Shown in pieces: positions 1-31,687 of a stretch of 64,000 bases of DNA. The DNA comes from a phage. The position numbers were made by a program, and so were the translations under genes. The stretch is taken from sequence record PZ452606.1; one strand, given 5' to 3'. Below the pieces are notes generated by a model that saw only the letters and a program-made list of their open reading frames with translations, made no database searches and had not been told where the DNA came from. Positions within the stretch are counted from its first letter, which is position 1; the number at the start of each line of letters is the position of its first letter.

Positions 1-172
1 CAGTAAAGAAATTATGAACTTGAATTGTAAAGGTGAAATCTGTTCCCATACCTTCTGTTGTTTCTACTTCAATAATATCACCTTCAACTGCCATTAAGAA
101 CCACATAGTTTCATCATATTTACCATTGAAGCATTTAGTTTTAACTGCAGCGTTCAGATTAATCGTTTTCAT
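1..172 (-). CDS. hypothetical protein, partial (3' end beyond window edge)
   Basis: ATG at 170-172 preceded by AAGGAG; frame open to position 1. Confidence 0.5.
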   Translation of the reverse strand, partial: MKTINLNAAVKTKCFNGKYDETMWFLMAVEGDIIEVETTEGMGTDFTFTIQVHNFFT

Positions 173-199
173 TTTATTCTCCTTTGTTTGTGTAAGATA

Positions 200-228
200 A
201 TACTATCACAAAGGAGCTATACTGTAAA
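200..228 (-). promoter_or_regulatory. early (sigma70) promoter
   Basis: TTTACA, 17-bp spacer, TAGTAT on minus strand. Confidence 0.4.
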
Positions 229-252
229 CAACTTTGTGCAATCTTTGGAAAA

Positions 253-277
253 TAAAAAAGGACTCCCGAAGGAGTCC
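253..277 (-). terminator. rho-independent terminator
   Basis: GGACTCC-TTCG-GGAGTCC hairpin then U-tract on minus strand. Confidence 0.6.
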
Positions 278-282
278 TCAAC

Positions 283-459
283 TTATGCTTTCTGCTTACC
301 AAAACGAGAAGCATCATCTCGAAGAACCGCACGTGCTCGGCGCATGATCTTCTCAACAGTTTGATTGATACGAGAGTTCGACCCACGCTTGTAACCAGCG
401 CGTTTAGAATCACCAACTTTCTTTTCAACTGCTTTCTTTGCTTTAACTTGTTTTGCCAT
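283..459 (-). CDS. small basic hypothetical protein
   Basis: Track ORF 283-501; internal ATG at 459 gives a Lys/Arg-rich 58 aa product; terminator follows. Confidence 0.45.
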   Translation of the reverse strand: MAKQVKAKKAVEKKVGDSKRAGYKRGSNSRINQTVEKIMRRARAVLRDDASRFGKQKA

Positions 460-747
460 TATAAATTCTCTTTTAAACGAAAATGCAGGACTTATTGGCA
501 TTGCCTGCGAAAGCCCTCAAAGGGGTACTTAGGTTTTGAATATTTACCGACAGGATAACCATAAACCCGTCATCATACCACCAAGACTTACACAGATAAC
601 ACTTTTCTGACGCATGATAGTAACATTCAAGAGGTACACCGTAAAACTGCCGGGGTCTTAAAACTATAATGATTCGCAAATCATTAATCAGACAGTTCGA
701 CGGCTCCTCGATTTTAGCTCACACTAAGGCAGTGAATCTCCAATAAA

Positions 748-996
748 TTACTTCAGTGTTACCACAAAGTGACGAACTGCTTTTCGTGCAGCAGAAGCCA
801 GAGGCTTAGCATATTTAAGTTCATCTTTTTCCTGAAGCTCAGCAGCTAATGCAGTTTGAGCAGGATTCAGATGTTTGAAATAACGCAGGATTTCAAGAGC
901 TTCGGCTTCAACATCAATAGATGCGCCATAGTTTTCGTGACCATTATTCCATGCGTTTCGTTGCAGTTCAAGAGCGTGTTGTAATTGTTTAATCAT
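748..996 (-). CDS. rIII: rIII lysis inhibition accessory protein
   Basis: 82 aa, size and position next to gene 31 as in T4. Confidence 0.8.
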   Translation of the reverse strand: MIKQLQHALELQRNAWNNGHENYGASIDVEAEALEILRYFKHLNPAQTALAAELQEKDELKYAKPLASAARKAVRHFVVTLK

Positions 997-1135
997 TTAA
1001 AAATTCTCGTTAGAGATTAAAACTCGGTAGTCACGTTCTTCTGAATTTCATCTTCTTTCGACAGATCTCTCAGTTGTAGACTACCACATAGAATTGTTCG
1101 GTTAACTTATTATTCCGACACCCAATTCATATTAT

Positions 1136-1143
1136 TATTTATA
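1136..1143 (-). promoter_or_regulatory. late promoter-like TATAAATA box
   Basis: exact TATAAATA on minus strand just after gene 31 stop, upstream of rIII. Confidence 0.35.
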
Positions 1144-1479
1144 TCACTTATAAAGACACGGAATAGCTTTATAATGACAGGTAACGAATTTTTGTTTAAT
1201 TTCTTTTGGCTGCTTAAGACCCAGAGCTACAAAAGGATGCGGAACATTTCGAATTTGACCAACTGGAAGAGAAGTCAAATCACCAACTTCGCAGAAACCT
1301 TCAGGAACATCAGGACCGACAGAGTGAACTACACACAGTTCAGGAACTTCACCTTGAACACGTTTACCGATGATAAGTCCTGATTCTGTAACTTCTTCAT
1401 CACCGGCTTGTGCAGGTTCAGAAACTAAAATAACATATTCACCGACAGCACGAATTGGTAGCTGTTGTACTTCAGACAT
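1144..1479 (-). CDS. 31: gp31 co-chaperonin (GroES-like)
   Basis: 111 aa; sequence matches T4 gp31 from memory. Confidence 0.9.
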
Positions 1480-19719: not shown

Positions 19720-19727
19720 TATAAATA
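19720..19727 (+). promoter_or_regulatory. late promoter for gene 34
   Basis: exact TATAAATA about 35 nt before gene 34 ATG. Confidence 0.7.
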
Positions 19728-19761: not shown

Positions 19762-22700
19762 ATGGCCGAGATTAAAAGAAAGTTCAGAGCAGAAGATGGT
19801 CTGGACGCAGGTGGTGATAAAATAATCAACGTAGCTTTAGCTGATCGTGCCGTAGGAACTGACGGTGTTAACGTTGATTACTTAATTCAAGAAAACACAG
19901 TTCAACAATACGATCCAACTCGTGGATATTTAAAAGATTTTGTAATCATTTATGATAACCGCTTTTGGGCTGCTATAAATGATATTCCAAAACCGGCAGG
20001 AGCTTTTAATAGCGGACGCTGGAGAGCATTACGTACCGATGCTAACTGGATTACGGTTTCATCTGGTTCATATCAATTAAAATCTGGTGAAGCTATTTCG
20101 GTTAACACCGCAGCTGGTAATGATATTACATTTACTTTACCATCTACCCCAATTGACGGTGATACTATCGTTCTCCAAGATATTGGAGGAAAACCTGGAG
20201 TTAACCAAGTTTTAATTGTAGCTCCAGTGCAAAGTATTGTAAACTTCAGAGGTCAACAAGTACGTTCAGTACTAATGACTCATCCAAAATCGCAGATAGT
20301 TTTAATTTTTAGTAATCGTCTGTGGCAAATGTATGTTGCCGATTATAGTAGAGAAGCTGTCGTTGTAACACCAGCAAGTCTCTATCAGGCGCAATCTAAT
20401 GATTTTATCGTACGTAGATTTACTTCTGCTGCACCAATTAATGTTAAACTTCCAAGATTTGCTAATCATGGCGATATTATTAATTTCGTTGATTTAGATA
20501 AACTGAATCCACTTTATCATACAATTGTTACTACATACGATGAAACGACTTCAGTACAAGAAGTTGGAACTCATTCCATTGAAGGCCGTACATCAATTGA
20601 CGGTTTCTTGATGTTTGATGATAATGAGAAATTGTGGAGATTGTTTGACGGGGATAGTAAAGCACGTTTACGCATTATAACGACTAATTCTAATATTCGT
20701 CCAAACGAAGAAGTCATGGTATTTGGTGCGAATAACGGAACAACTCAAACAATTGAACTTCAGCTTCCAACTAATATTTCTGTTGGTGATACTGTTAAAA
20801 TTTCCATGAATTACATGAGAAAAGGACAAACAGTTAAAATCAAAGCTGCCGGTGAAGATAAAATTGCTTCTTCGGTTCAATTGTTGCAATTCCCAAAACG
20901 CTCAGAATATCCGCCTGAAGCTGAATGGGTTACAGTCCAAGAATTAGTTTTTAACGGTGAAACTAATTATGTTCCAGTTTTGCAACTTGCTTACATAGAA
21001 GATTCTGATGGAAAATATTGGGTTGTACAGCAAAACGTTCCAACTGTAGAAAGAGTAGACTCTTTAAATGATTCCACTAGAGCAAGATTAGGCGTAATTG
21101 CTTTAGCTACACAAGCTCAAGCTAACGTCGATTTAGAAAATTCTCCACAAAAAGAATTAGCAATTACTCCAGAAACATTAGCTAACCGTACTGCTACAGA
21201 AACTCGTAGAGGTATCGCAAGAATAGCAACTACTGCTCAAGTGAATCAGAACACCACATTCTCTTTTGCTGATGATATTATCATCACTCCTAAAAAGCTG
21301 AATGAAAGAACTGCTACAGAAACTCGCAGAGGTGTTGCAGAAATTGCTACTCAGCAAGAAACAAACGCAGGAACAGATGATACTACAATCATTACTCCTA
21401 AAAAGCTTCAAGCTCGTCAAGGTTCTGAATCATTATCCGGTATTGTAACTTTTGTATCTACTGCAAGTGCTACTCCAGCTTCTAGCCGTGAATTAAATGG
21501 TACGAATGTTTATAATAAAAACACTAATAATTTAGTTGTTTCACCTAAAGCTTTGGATCAGTATAAAGCTACTCCAACGCAGCAAGGTGCAGTAATTTTA
21601 GCAGTTGAAAGTGAAGTAATTGCTGGACAAAGTCAGGAAGGATGGGCAAATGCTGTTGTAACGCCAGAAACGTTACATAAAAAGACATCAACTGATGGAA
21701 GAATTGGTTTAATTGAAATTGCTACGCAAAGTGAAGTTAATACAGGAACTGATTATACTCGTGCAGTCACTCCTAAAACTTTAAATGACCGTAGAGCAAC
21801 TGAAAGTTTAAGTGGTATAGCTGAAATTGCTACACAAGTTGAATTCGACGCAGGCGTCGACGATACTCGTATCTCTACACCATTAAAAATTAAAACCAGA
21901 TTTAATAGTACTGATCGTACTTCTGTTGTTGCTCTATCTGGATTAGTTGAATCAGGAACTCTCTGGGACCATTATACCCTTAATATTCTTGAAGCAAATG
22001 AGACACAGCGTGGTACACTTCGTGTAGCTACACAGGTCGAAGCTGCTGCAGGAACATTAGATAATGTTTTAATAACTCCTAAAAAGCTTTTAGGTACTAA
22101 ATCTACCGAAGCACAAGAAGGTGTTATTAAAGTTGCAACCCAGTCTGAAACCGTAGCTGGAACATCAGCAAATACTGCTGTATCTCCAAAAAATTTAAAA
22201 TGGATTGTGCAGAGTGAACCTACTTGGGCAGCTACTACTGCAATAAGAGGTTTTGTTAAAACTTCATCTGGTTCAATTACATTCGTTGGTAATGATACAG
22301 TCGGTTCTACCCAAGATTTAGAACTATATGAGAAAAATAGCTATGCAGTATCACCATATGAATTAAACCGTGTATTAGCAAATTATTTGCCGTTAAAAGC
22401 AAAAGCTGCTGATACAAATTTATTGGATGGTCTAGATTCATCTCAGTTCATTCGTAGGGATATTGCACAGACGGTTAATGGTTCACTAACCTTAACCCAA
22501 CAAACGAATCTGAGTGCCCCTCTTGTATCATCTAGTACTGCTACGTTTGGTGGTTCAGTTTCGGCAAATAGTACATTAACTATTTCTAATACTGGAACGG
22601 CAACTCGTCTGATTTTTGAGAAAGGACCTCAAACTGGAACTAACCCAGCACAGACGATGACTATCAGAGTTTGGGGAAATCAGTTTGGTGGTGGATCAGA

Positions 22701-23631
22701 TACAACACGTTCTACTGTATTTGAAGTTGGTGATGAAACATCTAATCACTTTTATTCTCAACGTAATAAAGCTGGTAATATTACGTTTAGCATTAATGGT
22801 ACTGTGATGCCAATAAATGTTAACGCTTCCGGTTCATTGAATGCGAATGGCGTAGCAACATTTGGTAGTTCAGTTACAGCCAATGGTGAATTCATTAGCA
22901 AGTCTGCAAATGCTTTCAGAGCAATAAACGGTGATTATGGATTCTTTATCAGGAATGATGGCGGCAGCACATATTTTATGCTCACTGCATCCGGTGATCA
23001 GACTGGCGGATTTAATGGATTACGTCCTTTAGCTATTAATAATGCATCTGGCCAAGTAACGATTGGTGAAAGCTTAATCATTGCCAAAGGTGCTACTATA
23101 AATTCAGGTGGTTTGACTGTTAACTCGAGAATTCGTTCTCAGGGTACTAAAACATCTGATTTATATACCCGTGCGCCAACATCTGATACTGTAGGATTCT
23201 GGTCAATCGATATTAACGATTCAGCCACTTATAACCAGTTCCCAGGTTATTTTAAAATGGTTGAAAAAACTAATGAAGTGACTGGACTTCCATACTTAGA
23301 ACGTGGCGAAGAAGTTAAATCTCCTGGTACACTGACACAGTTTGGTAACACACTTGATTCGCTTTACCAAGATTGGATTACTTATCCAACGACACCAGAA
23401 GCGCGTACCACTCGCTGGACACGTACATGGCAGAAAACCAAAAACTCTTGGTCAAGTTTTGTTCAGGTATTTGACGGAGGTAACCCTCCTCAGCCGTCTG
23501 ATATCGGTGCTTTACCGTCTGATAATGCTACAATGGGAAATCTTACTATTCGTGATTTCTTACGAATTGGTAATGTTCGCATTATTCCTGACCCAGCGAA
23601 TAAAACGGTTAAATTTGAATGGGTTGAATAA
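19762..23631 (+). CDS. 34: long tail fibre proximal subunit gp34
   Basis: 1289 aa; N-terminus MAEIKRKFRAEDGLDAGGDKIINVALADR; internal TETRRG repeats; late promoter upstream. Confidence 0.95.
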   Translation: MAEIKRKFRAEDGLDAGGDKIINVALADRAVGTDGVNVDYLIQENTVQQYDPTRGYLKDFVIIYDNRFWAAINDIPKPAGAFNSGRWRALRTDANWITVSSGSYQLKSGEAISVNTAAGNDITFTLPSTPIDGDTIVLQDIGGKPGVNQVLIVAPVQSIVNFRGQQVRSVLMTHPKSQIVLIFSNRLWQMYVADYSREAVVVTPASLYQAQSNDFIVRRFTSAAPINVKLPRFANHGDIINFVDLDKLNPLYHTIVTTYDETTSVQEVGTHSIEGRTSIDGFLMFDDNEKLWRLFDGDSKARLRIITTNSNIRPNEEVMVFGANNGTTQTIELQLPTNISVGDTVKISMNYMRKGQTVKIKAAGEDKIASSVQLLQFPKRSEYPPEAEWVTVQELVFNGETNYVPVLQLAYIEDSDGKYWVVQQNVPTVERVDSLNDSTRARLGVIALATQAQANVDLENSPQKELAITPETLANRTATETRRGIARIATTAQVNQNTTFSFADDIIITPKKLNERTATETRRGVAEIATQQETNAGTDDTTIITPKKLQARQGSESLSGIVTFVSTASATPASSRELNGTNVYNKNTNNLVVSPKALDQYKATPTQQGAVILAVESEVIAGQSQEGWANAVVTPETLHKKTSTDGRIGLIEIATQSEVNTGTDYTRAVTPKTLNDRRATESLSGIAEIATQVEFDAGVDDTRISTPLKIKTRFNSTDRTSVVALSGLVESGTLWDHYTLNILEANETQRGTLRVATQVEAAAGTLDNVLITPKKLLGTKSTEAQEGVIKVATQSETVAGTSANTAVSPKNLKWIVQSEPTWAATTAIRGFVKTSSGSITFVGNDTVGSTQDLELYEKNSYAVSPYELNRVLANYLPLKAKAADTNLLDGLDSSQFIRRDIAQTVNGSLTLTQQTNLSAPLVSSSTATFGGSVSANSTLTISNTGTATRLIFEKGPQTGTNPAQTMTIRVWGNQFGGGSDTTRSTVFEVGDETSNHFYSQRNKAGNITFSINGTVMPINVNASGSLNANGVATFGSSVTANGEFISKSANAFRAINGDYGFFIRNDGGSTYFMLTASGDQTGGFNGLRPLAINNASGQVTIGESLIIAKGATINSGGLTVNSRIRSQGTKTSDLYTRAPTSDTVGFWSIDINDSATYNQFPGYFKMVEKTNEVTGLPYLERGEEVKSPGTLTQFGNTLDSLYQDWITYPTTPEARTTRWTRTWQKTKNSWSSFVQVFDGGNPPQPSDIGALPSDNATMGNLTIRDFLRIGNVRIIPDPANKTVKFEWVE

Positions 23632-23639
23632 GAGGTATT

Positions 23640-24755
23640 ATGGAAAAATTTATGGCAGAGTTTGGACAAGGATATGTCCAAACGCCATTTTTATCGGAAA
23701 GTAATTCAGTAAGATACAAAATAAGTATAGCGGGTTCTTGCCCGCTTTCTACTGCAGGACCATATGTTAAATTTCAAGATAATCCCGTAGGAAGTCAAAC
23801 ATTTAGCGCAGGCCTTCATTTAAGAGTTTTTGACCCTTCCACCGGAGCATTAGTTGATAGTAAGTCATATGCTTTTTCGACTTCAAATGATACTACATCA
23901 GCTGCTTTTGTTAGTTTCATGAATTCTTTGACGAATAATCGAATTGTTGCTATATTAACTAGTGGAAAGGTTAATTTTCCTCCTGAAGTAGTATCTTGGT
24001 TAAGAACCGCCGGAACGTCTGCCTTTCCATCTGACTCTATATTGTCAAGATTTGACGTATCATATGCTGCTTTTTATACTTCTTCTAAAAGAGCTATCGC
24101 ATTAGAGCATGTTAAACTGAGTAATAGAAAAAGCACAGATGATTATCAAACTATTTTAGATGTTGTATTTGACAGTTTAGAAGACGTAGGAGCTACCGGG
24201 TTTCCAAGAAGAACGTATGAAAGTGTTGAGCAATTTATGTCGGCAGTCGGTGGAACTAATAACGAAATTGCGCGTCTACCAACTTCAGCTGCTATAAGTA
24301 AATTATCTGATTATAATTTAATTCCTGGAGATGTTCTTTATCTTAAAGCCCAGTTATATGCTGATGCTGATTTACTTGCTCTTGGAACTACAAATATATC
24401 TATCCGTTTTTATAATGCATCTAATGGATATATTTCCTCGACACAAGCTGAATTTACTGGGCAAGCTGGGTCATGGGAATTAAAGGAAGATTATGTAGTT
24501 GTTCCAGAAAATGCAGTAGGATTTACGATATATGCACAGAGAACTGCTCAAGCGGGACAAGGCGGTATGCGAAATTTAAGCTTTTCTGAAGTATCAAGAA
24601 ACGGCGGCATTTCAAAACCTGCTGAATTTGGCGTCAATGGTATTCGTGTTAATTATATTTGTGAATCTGCTTCACCTCCGGATATAATGGTACTTCCTAC
24701 GCAAGCATCGTCTAAAACTGGTAAAGTGTTTGGGCAAGAATTTAGAGAAGTATAA
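23640..24755 (+). CDS. 35: tail fibre hinge protein gp35
   Basis: 371 aa, immediately after 34. Confidence 0.85.
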   Translation: MEKFMAEFGQGYVQTPFLSESNSVRYKISIAGSCPLSTAGPYVKFQDNPVGSQTFSAGLHLRVFDPSTGALVDSKSYAFSTSNDTTSAAFVSFMNSLTNNRIVAILTSGKVNFPPEVVSWLRTAGTSAFPSDSILSRFDVSYAAFYTSSKRAIALEHVKLSNRKSTDDYQTILDVVFDSLEDVGATGFPRRTYESVEQFMSAVGGTNNEIARLPTSAAISKLSDYNLIPGDVLYLKAQLYADADLLALGTTNISIRFYNASNGYISSTQAEFTGQAGSWELKEDYVVVPENAVGFTIYAQRTAQAGQGGMRNLSFSEVSRNGGISKPAEFGVNGIRVNYICESASPPDIMVLPTQASSKTGKVFGQEFREV

Positions 24756-24786: not shown

Positions 24787-24794
24787 TATAAATA
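24787..24794 (+). promoter_or_regulatory. late promoter for gene 36
   Basis: exact TATAAATA about 24 nt before gene 36 ATG. Confidence 0.7.
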
Positions 24795-24817: not shown

Positions 24818-25480
24818 ATGGCTGATTTAAAAGTAGGTTCAACAACCGGAGGCTCTGTCATTTGGCATCAAGGAAATTTTCCATTGAATCCAGCCGGTGA
24901 CGATGTACTCTATAAATCATTTAAAATATATTCAGAATATAATAAACCGCAGGCAGCTGATAACGATTTCGTTTCTAAAGCTAATGGTGGTACTTACGCC
25001 GCGACTGTTCGATTTAATGGAGGAGTACATGTTCCTACTATAGGTAGTAGTCAACAGTGCGGTGTTTATCCAGGTAACGGTGATGCAGCTACCTTTGCTA
25101 TGGCAAATATTGACATCGTTTCGTGGAATGGTATTGGTTTTAAATCATCACAAGGTTCAGCAGACCGAACTGTTGTAATTAATGCACGTAATGGTGATAT
25201 TAGTACAAAAGGCGTTATGACAGCAGTAGGTCAAATAAGAAGTAATGCAGTTGCTCCTGTAGCAGCAAATGACCTTACTCGAAAAGATTATGTTGATGGA
25301 GCAATAAATACTGTTACGGCAAATGCGGATTCTAGAGTTTTCCGTAAAGGAGACACTATGACTGGAAACTTAACCGCACCAAACTTTTTCTCACAGAATC
25401 CCGCATCTCAACCTTCACATGTTCCACGATTTGACCAAATCGTAATTAAGGATTCTGTTCAAGATTTCGGCTATTATTAA
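24818..25480 (+). CDS. 36: long tail fibre distal connector gp36
   Basis: 220 aa; own late promoter. Confidence 0.85.
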   Translation: MADLKVGSTTGGSVIWHQGNFPLNPAGDDVLYKSFKIYSEYNKPQAADNDFVSKANGGTYAATVRFNGGVHVPTIGSSQQCGVYPGNGDAATFAMANIDIVSWNGIGFKSSQGSADRTVVINARNGDISTKGVMTAVGQIRSNAVAPVAANDLTRKDYVDGAINTVTANADSRVFRKGDTMTGNLTAPNFFSQNPASQPSHVPRFDQIVIKDSVQDFGYY

Positions 25481-25488
25481 GAGGACTT

Positions 25489-28400
25489 ATGGCTACTTTA
25501 AAACAAATACAATTTAAAAGAAGCAAAACCGCAGGTGCACGTCCTGCTGCTTCAGTATTAGCCGAAGGTGAATTGGCTATAAACTTAAAAGATAGAACAA
25601 TTTTTACTAAAGATGATTCAGGAAATATCATTGATCTAGGTATTGCTAAAGGCGGTCAAATTGATGGAAATGTAACTATTGATGGAACTTTACGCGTCAA
25701 TGGACCAATAAACAACTTTGGAAATTTTTCTACAAGTGGTACTATTACGGCAAGTAATATTGTTTCTGCTACAGTATTCAGATCAACATCCGGTTCATTT
25801 TATACAAGAGCAATAAATGATACTGCAAATGCCCATCTTTGGTTTGAAAATACAAATGGCTCAGAACGTGGCGTTTTATATTCAAAACCGCAGTCTGAAA
25901 ATGAAGGCGTAATTACAATGCGTGTTCGTCAAGGAACCGCTGCGGGAGCTCAAAATTCAGAATTTCATTTCATTTCTACTGATGGCGGTATCTTCCAGGC
26001 ACGTAAGTTAACTGCTTTAACTTCTATTAGTACACCAACTATTAGTGTTAATTTAATTAATCATGATTCTAAATCATTTGGACAATACGATTCACAATCT
26101 TTGGTTAACTATGTTTATCCTGGAACCGGTGAAACAAATGGTGTAAACTATCTTCGTAAAGTTCGAGCTAAATCAGGTGGAACTATTTACCATGAAATTT
26201 GTACAGCTCAGACTGGGCTAGCTGATGAAGTTTCTTGGTGGACTGGTAATATACCGTTATTTAAACTATACGGTATTCGTAACGACGGTAGAATGATTAT
26301 CCGCAATAGCTTGGCCATTGGTACTGTGACTGAAGGATACCCGTCAAGCGATTATGGAAATACCGGGGTAATGGGAGATAGGTATTTAGCTCTTGGCGAT
26401 AATGCTTCTGGACTTAAATGGGTTCGTACTGGCGTTATTGACTTAATGGCTAACGGTATTTCTGCGGCGACTATTATTAATAATGGTATTAATAGTACTA
26501 AAAAATTGATGGTTGGTTATAGTCGAGATTCTGGTTCTACTTGGGATTTCCCAAATAACAACCAAGCAATGTTTACTGCGCGTACCGATGTTGATGGTAA
26601 TAATAACGGTGATGGTCAAACTCATATCGGTTATAGCAGTAATTCTAAAATGTATCACTATTTCCGTGGTACAGGTCGTATGTCCGTTAGTATGGGCGAT
26701 GGACTTCTTGTTGAGCCTGGCATTTTAGATATTAAAACTGGTTCAAATTCATTAAATTTGCGTGCTGATGGTACTGTTGCATCTACTCAAGAAGTTAAGC
26801 TTAATAATGGGTTATTCTTTAATAGTAGTTCTTCTAACGCCGGTCTTAAATTTGGCGCTTCTTCTTCTATAAATGGAACTAAGACAATACAATGGAACGC
26901 AGGCACCCGCCCGGGTCAGAACAAAAGCTATGTGACCATGAAAGCATGGGGCAATGCATTTGAGGATAACACTAATAAAAACAGAGAAACTGTATTTGAA
27001 TTAGGCGATGGACAGGGTTGGCATTTTTATTCACAACGCGTTGCTCCTGTAGCAGGTTCTACTGTCGGTTCTGTTGAATTTGCGATGGCCGGTAGTTTAT
27101 TAACTTCTGGTTCTATTACAACAAGATCTTCCCTGAATGCTGATAATGGATTGTCTGTAAATGGACAAGCTAAATTTGGTGGAACGGCAGATGCATTAAG
27201 AATTTGGAATGCTGAATACGGTGCTATTTTCCGTCGCTCAGAAAGTAATCTTTATATTATACCGACTCCTAAAGATGCTGGAGAATCGGGCGGTATAAGT
27301 AATCTTAGACCATTGATAATAGAACTGAACACTGGCACAGTTAAAATGTCGCATGATGTTCATTTAGGAGATTCTGGATCTGGTACAGGACTTTTACAAG
27401 TAAGTAATAGTCTTAAAACTATTAAAATGATATGTCCAGTAACTATTAATGAACGCAATGCAGCGCTTACCCTGGATTCTCCTTCATCTTCTTCTGCTAA
27501 TTATTTACAGGGTTCTAAAGCTGGAACTAGATCATGGTACGTTGGTCTTGGCGGCGCTGGAAATGATTTATCTCTTTATAGCCAATCTTATGGACATGGT
27601 CTTGTTATAAGCGATAATTTCGTGTCAATCAGTAAACCTCTTAAAGTTGGAAATGCCCAACTAGGAACTGATGGTAATATTACTAGCGGTTCAGGAAACT
27701 TTGCCAACTTGAACACCACACTAAACCGTAAAGTTAATTCTGGATTTATTACTTATGGAGCAACCGCTGGATGGTATAAGTTTGCAACAGTAACAATGCC
27801 ACAATCCACTTCGACGGTCTTCTTTAAAATAGTTGGAGGTTCTGGATTTAATAGCGGATTATTCACACAATGTAATATTGCTGAAATTGTTTTACGTACT
27901 AGTAATGAAAGACCTGCTGACTTAAATGCTGCATTATACACAAGAACAATTGGAGCTGCATTTAAAGATATTGCAGTTAATAACGTCTCTGGAGATACAT
28001 ATGACATTTATGTTTCTGCTGGAACATATTGTAATCAATTAGCTTGTGAGTGGTCATGTACCGAAAATGCTACTGTTAGTGTTATTGGTATTAACTCATC
28101 TACACAATCACCTGTAGATGCTCTTCCAGATACAGCAGTTAATGGTCAAGTTGCTAATGTTCTTAATAACTTGGTTGATCGCGGTAAAGTTAAGCGTTAT
28201 GAAGCCGATTCTGAAATAGCTATTAATAGCCAAACCGGTATTCGTATCAGAAGCAATGCCGATAAAACTGGTTCTGTGGCTACAATGTTACGAAATGATG
28301 GTGGTAGTTTTTATATTCTGTTTACAGATAAAAATGCCACTGATGGCGCAGCAACTGTTAACGGCGATTGGAATAGTAAACGTCCTTTCGCAATTAACTT

Positions 28401-29169
28401 AACAACCGGCGAAGTGATGATGAATAACGGCATAGCTGTTCGCAGCGCTGCTTTATTCTATAATAGCATAAACGTCAAAGATAATGGTTCTATTAACTTT
28501 GATAAGTCCGGCGCTAACCCGAGAAACATGCGTATATTCCATGCAGGTGATGGCACTCGTGGTAATCGCATTGAAATTGCTGATGAAACAAACTATATTG
28601 CTTACTTCCAAAAATTACCTGGTGGTCAAAATCAGGTTTCATTCAATAGTGCTACACTTTCTGGATTAACACAGTGTAATCAATTTGGTGTTAACACAAC
28701 AAACGCACTTGGTGGAAACAGTATAACATTTGGTGATACTGATACTGGTATTAAGCAAAATGGCGATGGATTATTAGACATATATGCGAACAACGTGCAA
28801 GTGTTCCGTTTCCAAAATGGTGATTTGTACTCATATAAAAATATAAATGCTCCAAACGTTTATATTCGTTCTGATATTCGTTTAAAATCTAACTTCAAAC
28901 CTATCGAAAATGCACTTGATAAAGTTGAAAAACTCAATGGTGTCATTTATGATAAAGCTGAATACATCGGTGGAGAGGCAATTGAAACTGAAGCGGGTAT
29001 TGTAGCTCAAACGTTACAAGACGTTTTACCAGAAGCCGTCCGTGAAACAGAAGACAGCAAGGGTAATAAAATACTCACTGTTTCTTCTCAAGCCCAGATT
29101 GCTCTTCTGGTTGAAGCTGTGAAAACACTTTCTGCTCGTGTAAAAGAACTTGAATCTAAACTTTTGTAA
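25489..29169 (+). CDS. 37: long tail fibre distal subunit gp37 with C-terminal intramolecular chaperone domain
   Basis: 1226 aa; the last ~99 aa from SDIRLK (nt 28870) resemble the self-cleaving S74-type chaperone domain. Confidence 0.9.
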   Translation: MATLKQIQFKRSKTAGARPAASVLAEGELAINLKDRTIFTKDDSGNIIDLGIAKGGQIDGNVTIDGTLRVNGPINNFGNFSTSGTITASNIVSATVFRSTSGSFYTRAINDTANAHLWFENTNGSERGVLYSKPQSENEGVITMRVRQGTAAGAQNSEFHFISTDGGIFQARKLTALTSISTPTISVNLINHDSKSFGQYDSQSLVNYVYPGTGETNGVNYLRKVRAKSGGTIYHEICTAQTGLADEVSWWTGNIPLFKLYGIRNDGRMIIRNSLAIGTVTEGYPSSDYGNTGVMGDRYLALGDNASGLKWVRTGVIDLMANGISAATIINNGINSTKKLMVGYSRDSGSTWDFPNNNQAMFTARTDVDGNNNGDGQTHIGYSSNSKMYHYFRGTGRMSVSMGDGLLVEPGILDIKTGSNSLNLRADGTVASTQEVKLNNGLFFNSSSSNAGLKFGASSSINGTKTIQWNAGTRPGQNKSYVTMKAWGNAFEDNTNKNRETVFELGDGQGWHFYSQRVAPVAGSTVGSVEFAMAGSLLTSGSITTRSSLNADNGLSVNGQAKFGGTADALRIWNAEYGAIFRRSESNLYIIPTPKDAGESGGISNLRPLIIELNTGTVKMSHDVHLGDSGSGTGLLQVSNSLKTIKMICPVTINERNAALTLDSPSSSSANYLQGSKAGTRSWYVGLGGAGNDLSLYSQSYGHGLVISDNFVSISKPLKVGNAQLGTDGNITSGSGNFANLNTTLNRKVNSGFITYGATAGWYKFATVTMPQSTSTVFFKIVGGSGFNSGLFTQCNIAEIVLRTSNERPADLNAALYTRTIGAAFKDIAVNNVSGDTYDIYVSAGTYCNQLACEWSCTENATVSVIGINSSTQSPVDALPDTAVNGQVANVLNNLVDRGKVKRYEADSEIAINSQTGIRIRSNADKTGSVATMLRNDGGSFYILFTDKNATDGAATVNGDWNSKRPFAINLTTGEVMMNNGIAVRSAALFYNSINVKDNGSINFDKSGANPRNMRIFHAGDGTRGNRIEIADETNYIAYFQKLPGGQNQVSFNSATLSGLTQCNQFGVNTTNALGGNSITFGDTDTGIKQNGDGLLDIYANNVQVFRFQNGDLYSYKNINAPNVYIRSDIRLKSNFKPIENALDKVEKLNGVIYDKAEYIGGEAIETEAGIVAQTLQDVLPEAVRETEDSKGNKILTVSSQAQIALLVEAVKTLSARVKELESKLL

Positions 29170-29170
29170 A

Positions 29171-29188
29171 AGAGGGCTTCGGCCCTCT
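29171..29188 (+). other. UUCG-tetraloop hairpin between genes 37 and 38
   Basis: AGAGGGC-TTCG-GCCCTCT, followed by the gene 38 SD. Confidence 0.45.
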
Positions 29189-29199
29189 AAGGATTTTTA

Positions 29200-29985
29200 A
29201 TGGCAATTGTAGGTGTTCCTGGCTGGATTGGTGAATCTGCCGTGAATGAAACTGGACAACGCTGGATGGATGCTGCGATGAGAGCAGTTCGTGTTTCAGT
29301 TCCTGGTTGGATGAGTTCAATGGCTGGGCAATCTAAAGAAGTATATTATAGCATTGGTGCTAGCAATTCTTACAATAAAGACACACTAATAAATTGGATA
29401 AAAGCCCAAGGAAGTACTCCTGTTGTTATTACAATTACAGGCAATATCGTTTCTTCATCGACAGGTCAACCATGCTTAGATTTTCCTAGCTCATTAACTA
29501 ATGCATACGTGACACTTAATATCAATTCAGGCGTGCATGTTTGGGGGCGCGGCGGGAATGGCGGAAATAACTCTGCTGGCGGAGCAGGAGGAACTGCAAT
29601 AAATAACGGAATTGGAACTAGATTACGTATTAACAACAATGGTGTTATCGCAGGCGGCGGTGGCGGCGGTGGCGGCGGGTATTATTCTCCTTTTTCACAA
29701 ATGAGATTAACCTTTGGCGGTGGTGGTGGGCGTCCGTTTGGTGCTGCCGGTGGGTCTGCTAATATGGAACAGGGTGCTACTGCTGGTACTATTTCTGCGC
29801 CAGGTAAAGGGTCTGTCAACGGTATCTATAATGGCGGGAATGGTGGTGATGCCGGAGCCGCAGGAGGTAAATGTAATATTCGCGGTCAAGGATCAGAATA
29901 TAACGGCGGTGCTGCGGGTAAAGCTGTTACTGGTAATGCTCCAACTTGGACTAAAGTTGGTACAATATACGGTTCAAGAGTATAA
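29200..29985 (+). CDS. 38: tail fibre adhesin gp38 (T2-type, glycine-rich)
   Basis: 261 aa; conserved N-terminus then poly-Gly islands separating variable segments. Confidence 0.85.
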   Translation: MAIVGVPGWIGESAVNETGQRWMDAAMRAVRVSVPGWMSSMAGQSKEVYYSIGASNSYNKDTLINWIKAQGSTPVVITITGNIVSSSTGQPCLDFPSSLTNAYVTLNINSGVHVWGRGGNGGNNSAGGAGGTAINNGIGTRLRINNNGVIAGGGGGGGGGYYSPFSQMRLTFGGGGGRPFGAAGGSANMEQGATAGTISAPGKGSVNGIYNGGNGGDAGAAGGKCNIRGQGSEYNGGAAGKAVTGNAPTWTKVGTIYGSRV

Positions 29986-30015
29986 TTTGAATAAATATCC
30001 TTAAAAGGAGGGTCT

Positions 30016-30672
30016 ATGGCAGCACCTAGAATATCATTTTCGCCCTCTGATATTCTGTTTGGTGTTCTAGATCGCTTGTTCAAAGATAACGCTACCGGGA
30101 AAGTTCTTGCTTCCCGGGTAGCTGTCGTAATTCTTTTATTTATGATGGCGATTGTTTGGTATAGGGGAGATAGTTTCTTTGAGTACTATAAGCAATCAAA
30201 GTATGAAACATACAGTGAAATTATTGAAAAGGAAAGAAATGCACGCTTTGAATCTGTCGCCCTGGAACAACTCCAGATAGTTCATATATCATCTGAGGCA
30301 GACTTTAGTGCGGTGTATTCTTTCCGCCCTAAAAACTTAAACTATTTTGTTGATATTATAGCATACGAAGGAAAATTACCTTCAACAATAAGTGAAAAAT
30401 CACTTGGAGGATATCCTGTTGATAAAACTATGGATGAATATACAGTTCATTTAAATGGACGTCATTATTATTCCAACTCAAAATTTGCTTTTTTACCAAC
30501 TAAAAAGCCTACTCCCGAAATAAACTACATGTACAGTTGTCCATATTTTAATTTGGATAATATCTATGCTGGAACGATAACCATGTACTGGTATAGAAAT
30601 GATCATATAAGTAATGACCGCCTTGAATCAATATGTGCTCAGGCGGCCAGAATATTAGGAAGGGCTAAATAA
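30016..30672 (+). CDS. t: holin T
   Basis: 218 aa; N-terminal TM helix and large periplasmic domain; matches T4 holin. Confidence 0.9.
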   Translation: MAAPRISFSPSDILFGVLDRLFKDNATGKVLASRVAVVILLFMMAIVWYRGDSFFEYYKQSKYETYSEIIEKERNARFESVALEQLQIVHISSEADFSAVYSFRPKNLNYFVDIIAYEGKLPSTISEKSLGGYPVDKTMDEYTVHLNGRHYYSNSKFAFLPTKKPTPEINYMYSCPYFNLDNIYAGTITMYWYRNDHISNDRLESICAQAARILGRAK

Positions 30673-31468: not shown

Positions 31469-31687
31469 TTATGCTTTGCGACTAAATTGTTCATAGTGCT
31501 GAATTACCTCTCTCAAACATTTGCATGTGAATGAAAACTTTTTAGCTACACCACATTCAAATATGTGTTCTCTTAAATCACATGTATCGGTATATCCCAT
31601 CTCAACAATAAAATGCCGTATTAGATTTTTATCTTTATCATTGAGAGAATTAAAATAATCAGATTTTGAATTAATTTCCCTGGCCAA
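31469..31687 (-). CDS. hypothetical Cys-containing protein
   Basis: 72 aa with C..C/CxC arrangement. Confidence 0.45.
   Translation of the reverse strand: MAREINSKSDYFNSLNDKDKNLIRHFIVEMGYTDTCDLREHIFECGVAKKFSFTCKCLREVIQHYEQFSRKA

Follow-up and report, generated by a model that had tools for sequence, protein, structure and literature searches.

A T2/T6-type long-tail-fibre tip module with a predicted self-cleaving gp37 chaperone domain and a gp38 adhesin carrying T6-type receptor loops

In phage T2 (AP018813), which uses FadL/OmpF, the proteolytic processing of gp37 and the role of gp38 as the tip adhesin are established (PMC3157838), and gp37 processing has been reported for both T2 and T6 (PMC3157838). 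The structural model of such a tip is that of Salmonella phage S16 (PDB 6F45), with an autocleaved intramolecular chaperone (IMC), Trp-prong docking and a polyglycine-II (PGII) sandwich with loops (PMC6851490, PMC7917993). S16 gp37 autocleaves at S^SDRRIKK and exposes the gp38 docking surface (PMC7917993), into which the three N-terminal Trp residues of gp38 plug in 6F45 (PMC6851490, PMC7917993). In the gp38 family the variable loops set receptor choice (PMC3157838, PMC12032242, bioRxiv 10.64898/2026.04.02.716166), and T6-like sets of hypervariable segments (HVS) recognise Tsx, the receptor of T6 (PMC3157838). The ICA domains of K1F endoNF and MyRF, of the same Pfam family as the chaperone domain described here, have an S-x4-K dyad at their start and a C-terminal trimerising helix, and are released after the upstream triple beta-helix folds (PMC8326128).

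The window, a 64,000-nt stretch of phage DNA (PZ452606.1), contains the locus 34-35-36-37-38-holin t, which is a Tequatrovirus long-tail-fibre operon (Table 1). In the ORF map, gene 38 stands directly after the IMC-bearing gene 37 and ahead of holin t, an order common to T2, T6, Sf22, NR1, S16, Ox2 and M1; gene 36 is syntenic with gene 36 of T2, T6, T4, Sf22 and NR1. From knowledge of T4, the late promoter box upstream of gene 36 probably drives a 36-37-38-t late transcript, and a second T4-type box was found at 19720, upstream of gene 34. The argument for these boxes is their position, not enrichment, because the window has no more copies of the motif than chance predicts (6 seen vs. 10 expected). 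The hairpin between genes 37 and 38 has a 7-bp stem with five GC pairs, and is directly followed by the AAGGA Shine-Dalgarno of gene 38 (29189–29193). The equivalent hairpin is annotated as stem-loop/potential terminator in K3 (X04747) and as terminator in NR1.

Table 1. Features of the tail-fibre tip locus (nt, window positions; aa, residues of the respective protein)
Feature	nt	aa	Strand	Basis
T4-type late promoter box TATAAATA	24787..24794		+	exact match, 24 nt upstream of gene 36 ATG (24818)
gp36, distal hinge connector, gp37 trimer attachment point	24818..25480		+	Pfam Phage_T4_gp36, E 3.1e-37
gp37 precursor ORF, 1226 aa	25489..29169		+	ORF list
Mature gp37 part, trimeric distal half-fibre shaft (predicted)	25489..28869	1-1127	+	ORF and Pfam
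Predicted autocleavage site Arg1127/Ser1128	28867..28872		+	alignment with S16 and fPS sites
IMC/autoprotease domain, 99 aa	28870..29166	1128-1226	+	Pfam Peptidase_S74
UUCG-tetraloop hairpin AGAGGGC-TTCG-GCCCTCT, genes 37/38 intergenic	29171..29188		+	terminator-like scan
gp38 ORF, 261 aa	29200..29985		+	ORF list
gp38 N-terminal attachment domain	29200..29337	1-46	+	Pfam Gp38_N
gp38 linker and beta-helix domain	29338..29544	47-115	+	aligned to 6F45_D
gp38 predicted PGII sandwich and receptor-binding region	29545..29919		+	aligned to 6F45_D, 9V85
gp38 glycine-rich motifs		116-122, 127-131, 152-160, 173-185, 212-223, 236-240		
gp38 HVS1		123-126		
gp38 HVS2	29680-29715	161-172	+	
gp38 HVS3	29755-29832	186-211	+	
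gp38 HVS4	29869-29904	224-235	+	
gp38 conserved C-terminal strand and stop codon	29920..29985	241-261	+	
holin t, closes conserved 34-38-t block	30016..30672		+	Pfam Phage_holin_T, E 2.1e-117

The sequence-only reading had proposed that gp37 ends with a ~99-aa segment, from SDIRLK at nt 28870, that resembles self-cleaving chaperones. The position was exact (aa 1128, with 99 aa remaining), and Peptidase_S74 (PF13884) matched aa 1128–1185 over its full profile (1–58/58, E 3.4e-15) with 56.5 bits (cut-off 22), a resemblance far above chance. The Ser/Lys dyad, whose alignment had been suggested as a check, is present. The predicted catalytic residues, Ser1128 (nt 28870–28872) and Lys1133 (nt 28885–28887), lie five residues apart at the domain start (S-D-I-R-L-K), and both were invariant in nine of nine aligned T-even gp37 C-termini, with the intervening Arg also conserved. 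They align with S587/K592 of MyRF in 7DC3 (ADLRAK; S587A crystal construct), the catalytic dyad by mutagenesis and the equivalent of endoNF S911/K916 (PMC8326128). The profile alignments with the MyRF ICA (7DC3, E 2.6e-9) and with a tail fibre (8JOV, E 1.2e-6) reach through the C-terminal helix (...IALLVEAVKTLSARVKELESKLL), which is predicted to be trimerising, as in Peptidase_S74 IMC domains.

Alignment with the S16 (DLNVS^SDRRIKK) and fPS (DVYIR^SDGRLKI) sites (PMC7917993) predicts cleavage of gp37 between NVYIR and SDIRLK. Upstream of this site the shaft contains a Gp34_trimer (aa 495–611) and a gp37_trimer domain (aa 660–732), and its terminal ...NAPNVYIR strand, the predicted gp38 docking tip, aligns with S16 gp37 in 6F45_A. 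Cleavage in this phage is deduced from homology, and the domain could instead be a degenerate, non-cleaving remnant kept on the fibre. The full-length Peptidase_S74 match well over the Pfam threshold and the joint conservation of dyad, Arg and C-terminal helix argue against a remnant. So does purifying selection, which is indicated by the DNA identity of 28870–29166 to Sf22 (100%) and T2 (91–100%); the last 167 aa of gp37 are 94.6% identical to T2 gp37. An exposed tip is, moreover, required for gp38 docking (PMC7917993), and we consider a non-cleaving remnant very improbable.

The T2-type gp38 adhesin family is defined by PF05268 and PF21721. In the window, gp38 matched Pfam GP38 at aa 47–261 (E 2e-71, profile 1–218/218) and Gp38_N at aa 1–42 (E 8.2e-18), as well as the adhesin structures 6F45_D of S16 (E 4.6e-49 over aa 8–259) and 9V85 (E 2.4e-32). 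As had been proposed for checking, gp38 was aligned with the T2, T6 and Ox2 adhesins; it aligns end to end with these and with those of M1 and S16. BLASTP against the T4 gp38 chaperone (183 aa) returned E 19 and no meaningful alignment. These results bear out the proposal of a T2/Ox2-type adhesin rather than the T4 chaperone. If gp38 were nonetheless a T4-type assembly chaperone, it would be missing from virions and the gp37 C-terminus would bind the receptor. The gene does occupy the position of T4 gene 38, and several near-identical database proteins are labelled 'distal long tail fiber assembly catalyst' or 'tail assembly protein', but these labels represent annotation transfer by gene number, and the T4 RefSeq note calls the T2-subfamily 'gp38' unrelated, the adhesin. 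Homology of gp37 with T4 gp37 ends at aa 798, and therefore the T4 receptor-binding needle is absent here. Together with the adhesin matches, this leaves the chaperone hardly any probability, and gp38 is predicted to be present in virions.

The adhesin architecture was resolved by domain. Residues W9, W22 and W37 of the attachment domain are invariant across the window, NR1, Sf22, T2, T6, Ox2, M1 and S16, and identity over aa 1–46 is 100% with Sf22 and NR1, 97.8% with T2 and 65% with T6, Ox2 and M1. Gly content rises to 37% in aa 116–240 vs. 9.6% in aa 1–115. The poly-Gly islands between variable segments that had been described in the 261-aa protein were located with exact coordinates, and in the family alignment invariant Gly blocks alternate with variable segments. 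By homology to solved structures, the C-terminal half would take the PGII-sandwich fold. The C-terminal strand is 100, 84 and 72% identical to that of Sf22, T2 and T6, respectively.

That the variable loops set receptor and host range, as the first reading had it, is established for the family; in related phages, exchange of the gp38 HVS cassette alone alters host range. HVS2, HVS3 and HVS4 are 93, 75 and 86% identical to those of T6, but 0–19% identical to T2 and Sf22 (0–18% for T2) and 0–27% to the T2 and Ox2 (OmpA) loops. The label 'T2-type' thus holds for the scaffold (gp37 tip and gp38 N-terminus, of T2/K3 type), but not for HVS2–4, which are T6-type; the predicted receptor is therefore Tsx, and the phage likely uses it rather than the FadL/OmpF of T2. 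The whole 261-aa gp38 matches its counterpart in Escherichia phage vB_Eco_NR1 (LR990704) at every residue (100% identity) and is 98.9% identical to those of Bas39 FriedrichMiescher (MZ501066) and Shigella phage JK38 (MK962755), all of 261 aa and with the same 37-38-t order. Both Bas39 and JK38 are Tsx-dependent by experiment (Bas39, receptor Tsx, BASEL S5 table; JK38, Tsx/Kdo dependence by RB-TnSeq). Only three residues separate them from the window gp38: S86Q and Q90V in the linker/beta-helix and R169K in HVS2.

The module may be as described but bind another receptor (OmpA, OmpF, FadL, OmpC, LPS, or with dual specificity). One or a few HVS substitutions switch or extend specificity, as in PST vs. 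T6 (PMC3157838) and RB68 Q206L (bioRxiv 10.64898/2026.04.02.716166), and R169 in HVS2 leaves a small receptor uncertainty for this reason; HVS3 is also just 75% identical to T6. However, HVS3 and HVS4 are the same as in the two phages with measured Tsx dependence, HVS2 differs solely at position 169, where the window has the T6 residue, and the PST-specific 167R/168I are absent (Q167 and M168, as in T6). The low identity to the T2 and Ox2 loops likewise argues for Tsx, and we judge a different receptor unlikely.

These data suggest with high confidence that the module encodes the distal tip of the long tail fibre in a T2/T6-type Tequatrovirus, a tip made of cleaved gp37 and a Tsx-binding gp38 adhesin; no evidence contradicts this model. 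In the mechanism that we propose by homology, (i) gp37 would be synthesised as a 1226-aa precursor, whose Peptidase_S74 chaperone (the last 99 residues) would trimerise and nucleate folding of the trimeric beta-helical shaft; (ii) the IMC domain would then remove itself, Ser1128/Lys1133 presumably cutting the Arg1127–Ser1128 bond, and expose the ...NVYIR tip; (iii) a single gp38 monomer would dock on that tip via an N-terminal helical bundle with Trp9, Trp22 and Trp37; and (iv) the C-terminal half of gp38 would form the PGII sandwich, whose hypervariable loops would bind an outer-membrane protein, most probably the nucleoside channel Tsx.

Such a tip module is textbook, well-described T-even biology and already known, and its importance is confined to annotation and practical use, with no open question advanced. 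Gene 38 should be annotated as a receptor-binding adhesin, predicted to use Tsx, instead of as an 'assembly catalyst', and a C-terminal autocleaving chaperone domain should be added to the gp37 annotation. The Tsx prediction is useful for the design of phage-therapy cocktails and for foreseeing resistance via tsx mutants.

Compared with known systems, the module is a typical mosaic of an Sf22-type fibre and a T6-type loop cassette. Shigella phage Sf22 (MF158045), the closest relative of this shaft, has a gp37 with 97.9% aa identity over the full length; its IMC domain and the N-terminus of its gp38 are identical to those in the window, but its gp38 loop cassette is unrelated and resembles that of OmpC-binding PP01 gp38 (9V85, E 5.6e-56), and its PP01-like adhesin is probably OmpC-type. 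The DNA switches from Sf22-like to NR1-like at ~29362, inside the gp38 beta-helix domain and not in a glycine-rich motif. The mosaic junctions are one more case of the documented exchange of gp38 cassettes. The gp37 shafts of Bas39 and JK38 are ~72% identical to that of the window; that the Sf22-type shaft with an NR1/Bas39-type Tsx cassette is a previously unsampled recombinant is a doubtful proposition. If the shaft also aids surface recognition, such a recombinant could have a host range unlike that of either parental type. T2 shares the gp37/gp38 architecture, but its gp37 shaft, of 1341 aa, is ~50% identical to the window's. T6 gp38 (AP018814) shares the loops but has a scaffold of the other (T6/Ox2/M1) type, with a beta-helix of 33% identity and a gp37 tip and IMC of ~41%. 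The S16 tip is homologous over the whole of gp38 and in the gp37 tip and IMC (E 7e-13; profile E 6e-65), but its gp38 is ~49% identical and binds Salmonella OmpC, and its IMC has 113 aa vs. 99 aa here. The endoNF and MyRF domains are distant in sequence; here a T-even fibre shaft serves as the upstream passenger, and the predicted cleavage would also make the docking site for a separate adhesin.

The window is a portion of a T-even (Tequatrovirus) genome, with its first 25 kb 96% identical to phages slur02/04 and their relatives. The same gene order is annotated in T2, T6, T4, Sf22, NR1, S16, Ox2 and M1.

Genes of the long-tail-fibre block and its surroundings in the window
Gene	Coordinates	Strand	Remark
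gp34	19762-23631		long-tail-fibre block
gp35	23640-24755		long-tail-fibre block
gp36	24818-25480		long-tail-fibre block
gp37	25489-29169		1226 aa
gp38	29200-29985		261 aa
holin t	30016-30672		downstream of gp38
asiA		minus	listed in the same gene block

Late-promoter boxes (TATAAATA) were found directly upstream of gene 34 and gene 36, and only these were considered because the motif count across the window, 6 vs. 10 expected, shows no enrichment. A scan of the window for sigma-70-like promoters was uninformative (16 matches vs. 20.1 expected from shuffling). Genes 37 and 38 are separated by a GC-rich UUCG-tetraloop hairpin (29171-29188), 1 nt 3′ of the gp37 stop, and then by the AAGGA Shine-Dalgarno of gene 38. 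K3 and NR1 keep the same hairpin, annotated there as a potential terminator. The gp37:gp38 ratio in the fibre is 3:1, and the hairpin may set the expression ratio of the two proteins or stabilise the mRNA.

Elsewhere in the block, the Pfam ILEI family (PF15711, FAM3/ILEI-like domain) matched aa 58-126 of gp35, the proximal hinge connector (E 1e-8; 36 bits vs. a cut-off of 27). Between arn and arn.2, a 72-aa ORF (31469-31687, minus strand) takes the place that arn.1 has in T4; at the counterpart position in NR1 the hypothetical protein NR1_117 is annotated. No tRNA genes were detected by ARAGORN in the entire 64-kb window (1-64000). Minus-strand ORFs of 60-84 aa within genes 37 and 38 were unsupported and were taken as chance.

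The sequence-only reading had proposed that gp37 ends in a segment resembling self-cleaving intramolecular chaperone domains, and its placement was exact: the segment begins with SDIRLK at residue 1128 (nt 28870) and runs for 99 residues to the C-terminus. Pfam assigned residues 1128-1185 to Peptidase_S74 ("chaperone of endosialidase") over the whole 58-position profile (E 3.4e-15; 56.5 bits vs. a cut-off of 22). The catalytic Ser/Lys dyad was found on alignment, and Ser1128, Asp1129, Arg1131 and Lys1133 are invariant across nine T-even gp37 C-termini (window, Sf22, NR1, T2, T6, K3, Ox2, M1 and S16). The profile of this alignment matched the tip of Salmonella phage S16 gp37 (6F45_A, E 6e-65), the MyRF ICA domain (7DC3, E 2.6e-9) and a phage tail fibre (8JOV, E 1.2e-6), with each alignment starting at the SDxRxK motif and reaching the C-terminal helix. 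When the gp37 C-terminus was searched against the PDB as a single sequence, it matched 6F45_A and MyRF, besides a long tail of influenza HA2 matches (E 0.05-1) that were gone in the profile search and were discarded as coiled-coil/compositional noise. In the MyRF alignment, Ser1128 stands opposite the alanine introduced in the crystallised S587A construct, and Lys1133 opposite K592. The Ser-Lys dyad of MyRF (S587/K592) has been proven by mutation, and its equivalent in endoNF is S911/K916 (PMC8326128).

In S16 gp37, autocleavage at DLNVS^SDRRIKK removes the last 113 residues, exposing the gp38 docking surface, and the homologous site in T6-type fibres is DVYIR^SDGRLKI (PMC7917993). Since the window gp37 reads NVYIR|SDIRLKS, cleavage is predicted at the Arg1127-Ser1128 bond. 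Over its last 167 residues, this gp37 shares 94.6% identity with T2 gp37.

The 261-aa gp38 had been read as an adhesin with glycine islands between variable segments, and this architecture was recovered. Residues 116-240 contain 37% glycine, compared with 9.6% in residues 1-115, and this glycine-rich region accounts for a local rise in GC content to a peak of 0.486 and for a GC skew of +0.29 at 29500-29999. Alignment with T2, T6, Ox2, M1, S16, Sf22 and NR1 revealed invariant glycine blocks and invariant W9, W22 and W37; Ox2 and M1 represent the OmpA-type adhesins in this set, in place of K3 gp38, whose record (X04747) ends at the gene 38 start codon. In S16 gp38, three tryptophans plug into the gp37 tip (PMC6851490). 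The protein matched Pfam GP38 (E 2e-71, full profile) and Gp38_N (E 8.2e-18). Its residues 39-261 aligned with 9V85 (E 2.4e-32), the PP01 gp38 receptor-binding domain (PMC12892980), and residues 8-259 with the S16 adhesin in its crystal structure (6F45_D, E 4.6e-49); the latter match, together with that of the gp37 profile at E 6e-65, settles family membership.

A role for gp38 as a T4-type assembly chaperone, which the sequence-only reading had also set aside, was rejected because there is no similarity to T4 gp38 (E 19) and because homology to T4 gp37 ends at gp37 residue 798, leaving the protein without a T4-type receptor needle. In public records (teqsoen, teqhal, RB18, SA20RB and others), many near-identical gp38 adhesins wrongly bear the name "distal long tail fiber assembly catalyst" or "tail assembly protein", because annotation was transferred from the unrelated T4 gp38.

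At the sequence level, segment-wise identities show gp38 to be a chimera. The N-terminal domain (aa 1-46) is 98-100% identical to T2/Sf22 and 65% to T6/Ox2/M1, whereas hypervariable loops HVS2, HVS3 and HVS4 are 93, 75 and 86% identical to T6, respectively, and 0-19% to T2 and Sf22. Over the whole protein, NR1 gp38 is identical to that of the window, and a 98.9% identical gp38 occurs in ∼20 deposited phages, Bas39 FriedrichMiescher and JK38 among them. Bas39 and JK38 differ only by S86Q and Q90V (beta-helix) and R169K (HVS2); at position 169, T6 has the same residue as the window. Tsx is the measured primary receptor of Bas39 (BASEL S5 table), and RB-TnSeq assigned Tsx/Kdo to JK38 (bioRxiv 10.64898/2026.04.02.716166). 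T6-like HVS sets lead to Tsx recognition (PMC3157838), and the receptor is predictable from gp38 phylogeny (PMC12032242). Tsx is therefore the predicted receptor, with the caveat that single loop substitutions can alter specificity.

The window gp37 is 97.9% identical to that of Sf22, but only 72-77% to those of NR1, Bas39 and K3. In 45-nt windows, the DNA is ∼100% Sf22-like from the chaperone domain through ∼29361; from ∼29362, inside the gp38 beta-helix domain, it is NR1/Bas39-like to the end of gene 38. At 29671-29931 (HVS2-4), identity to Sf22 drops to 36-58% and identity to T6 climbs to 69-93%. The loop cassette (receptor-binding region) of Sf22 resembles instead that of PP01 gp38 (9V85, E 5.6e-56), which binds OmpC (PMC12892980), and is probably of the OmpC type. 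Of the 26 aa differences from Sf22 gp37, 10 fall in a 50-residue shaft stretch (aa 800-849, ∼27886-28035), which may represent either a small patch of recombination or a surface that varies locally. In the JK38 record (L012, 1478-5969), two overlapping CDS make up gp37, and a 480-nt stretch with homology to 27633-28112 of the window is present twice, reflecting either an internal shaft duplication or an assembly/annotation problem.

The gp37-tip and gp38 N-terminal types co-vary (T2/K3/Sf22/NR1 vs. T6/Ox2/M1), and the loop cassette moves independently of them; modular shuffling of this kind has been described for the family (PMC3157838). The observation made from sequence is confirmed and its interpretation supported. 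The module is a receptor-recognition tip of the T2 type, standard for such phages and well characterised. An identical gp38 protein and a 98% identical gp37 protein are already deposited and annotated, and the sole additions to prior knowledge are (i) the exact predicted cleavage site; (ii) the Tsx prediction; and (iii) the recombination map.
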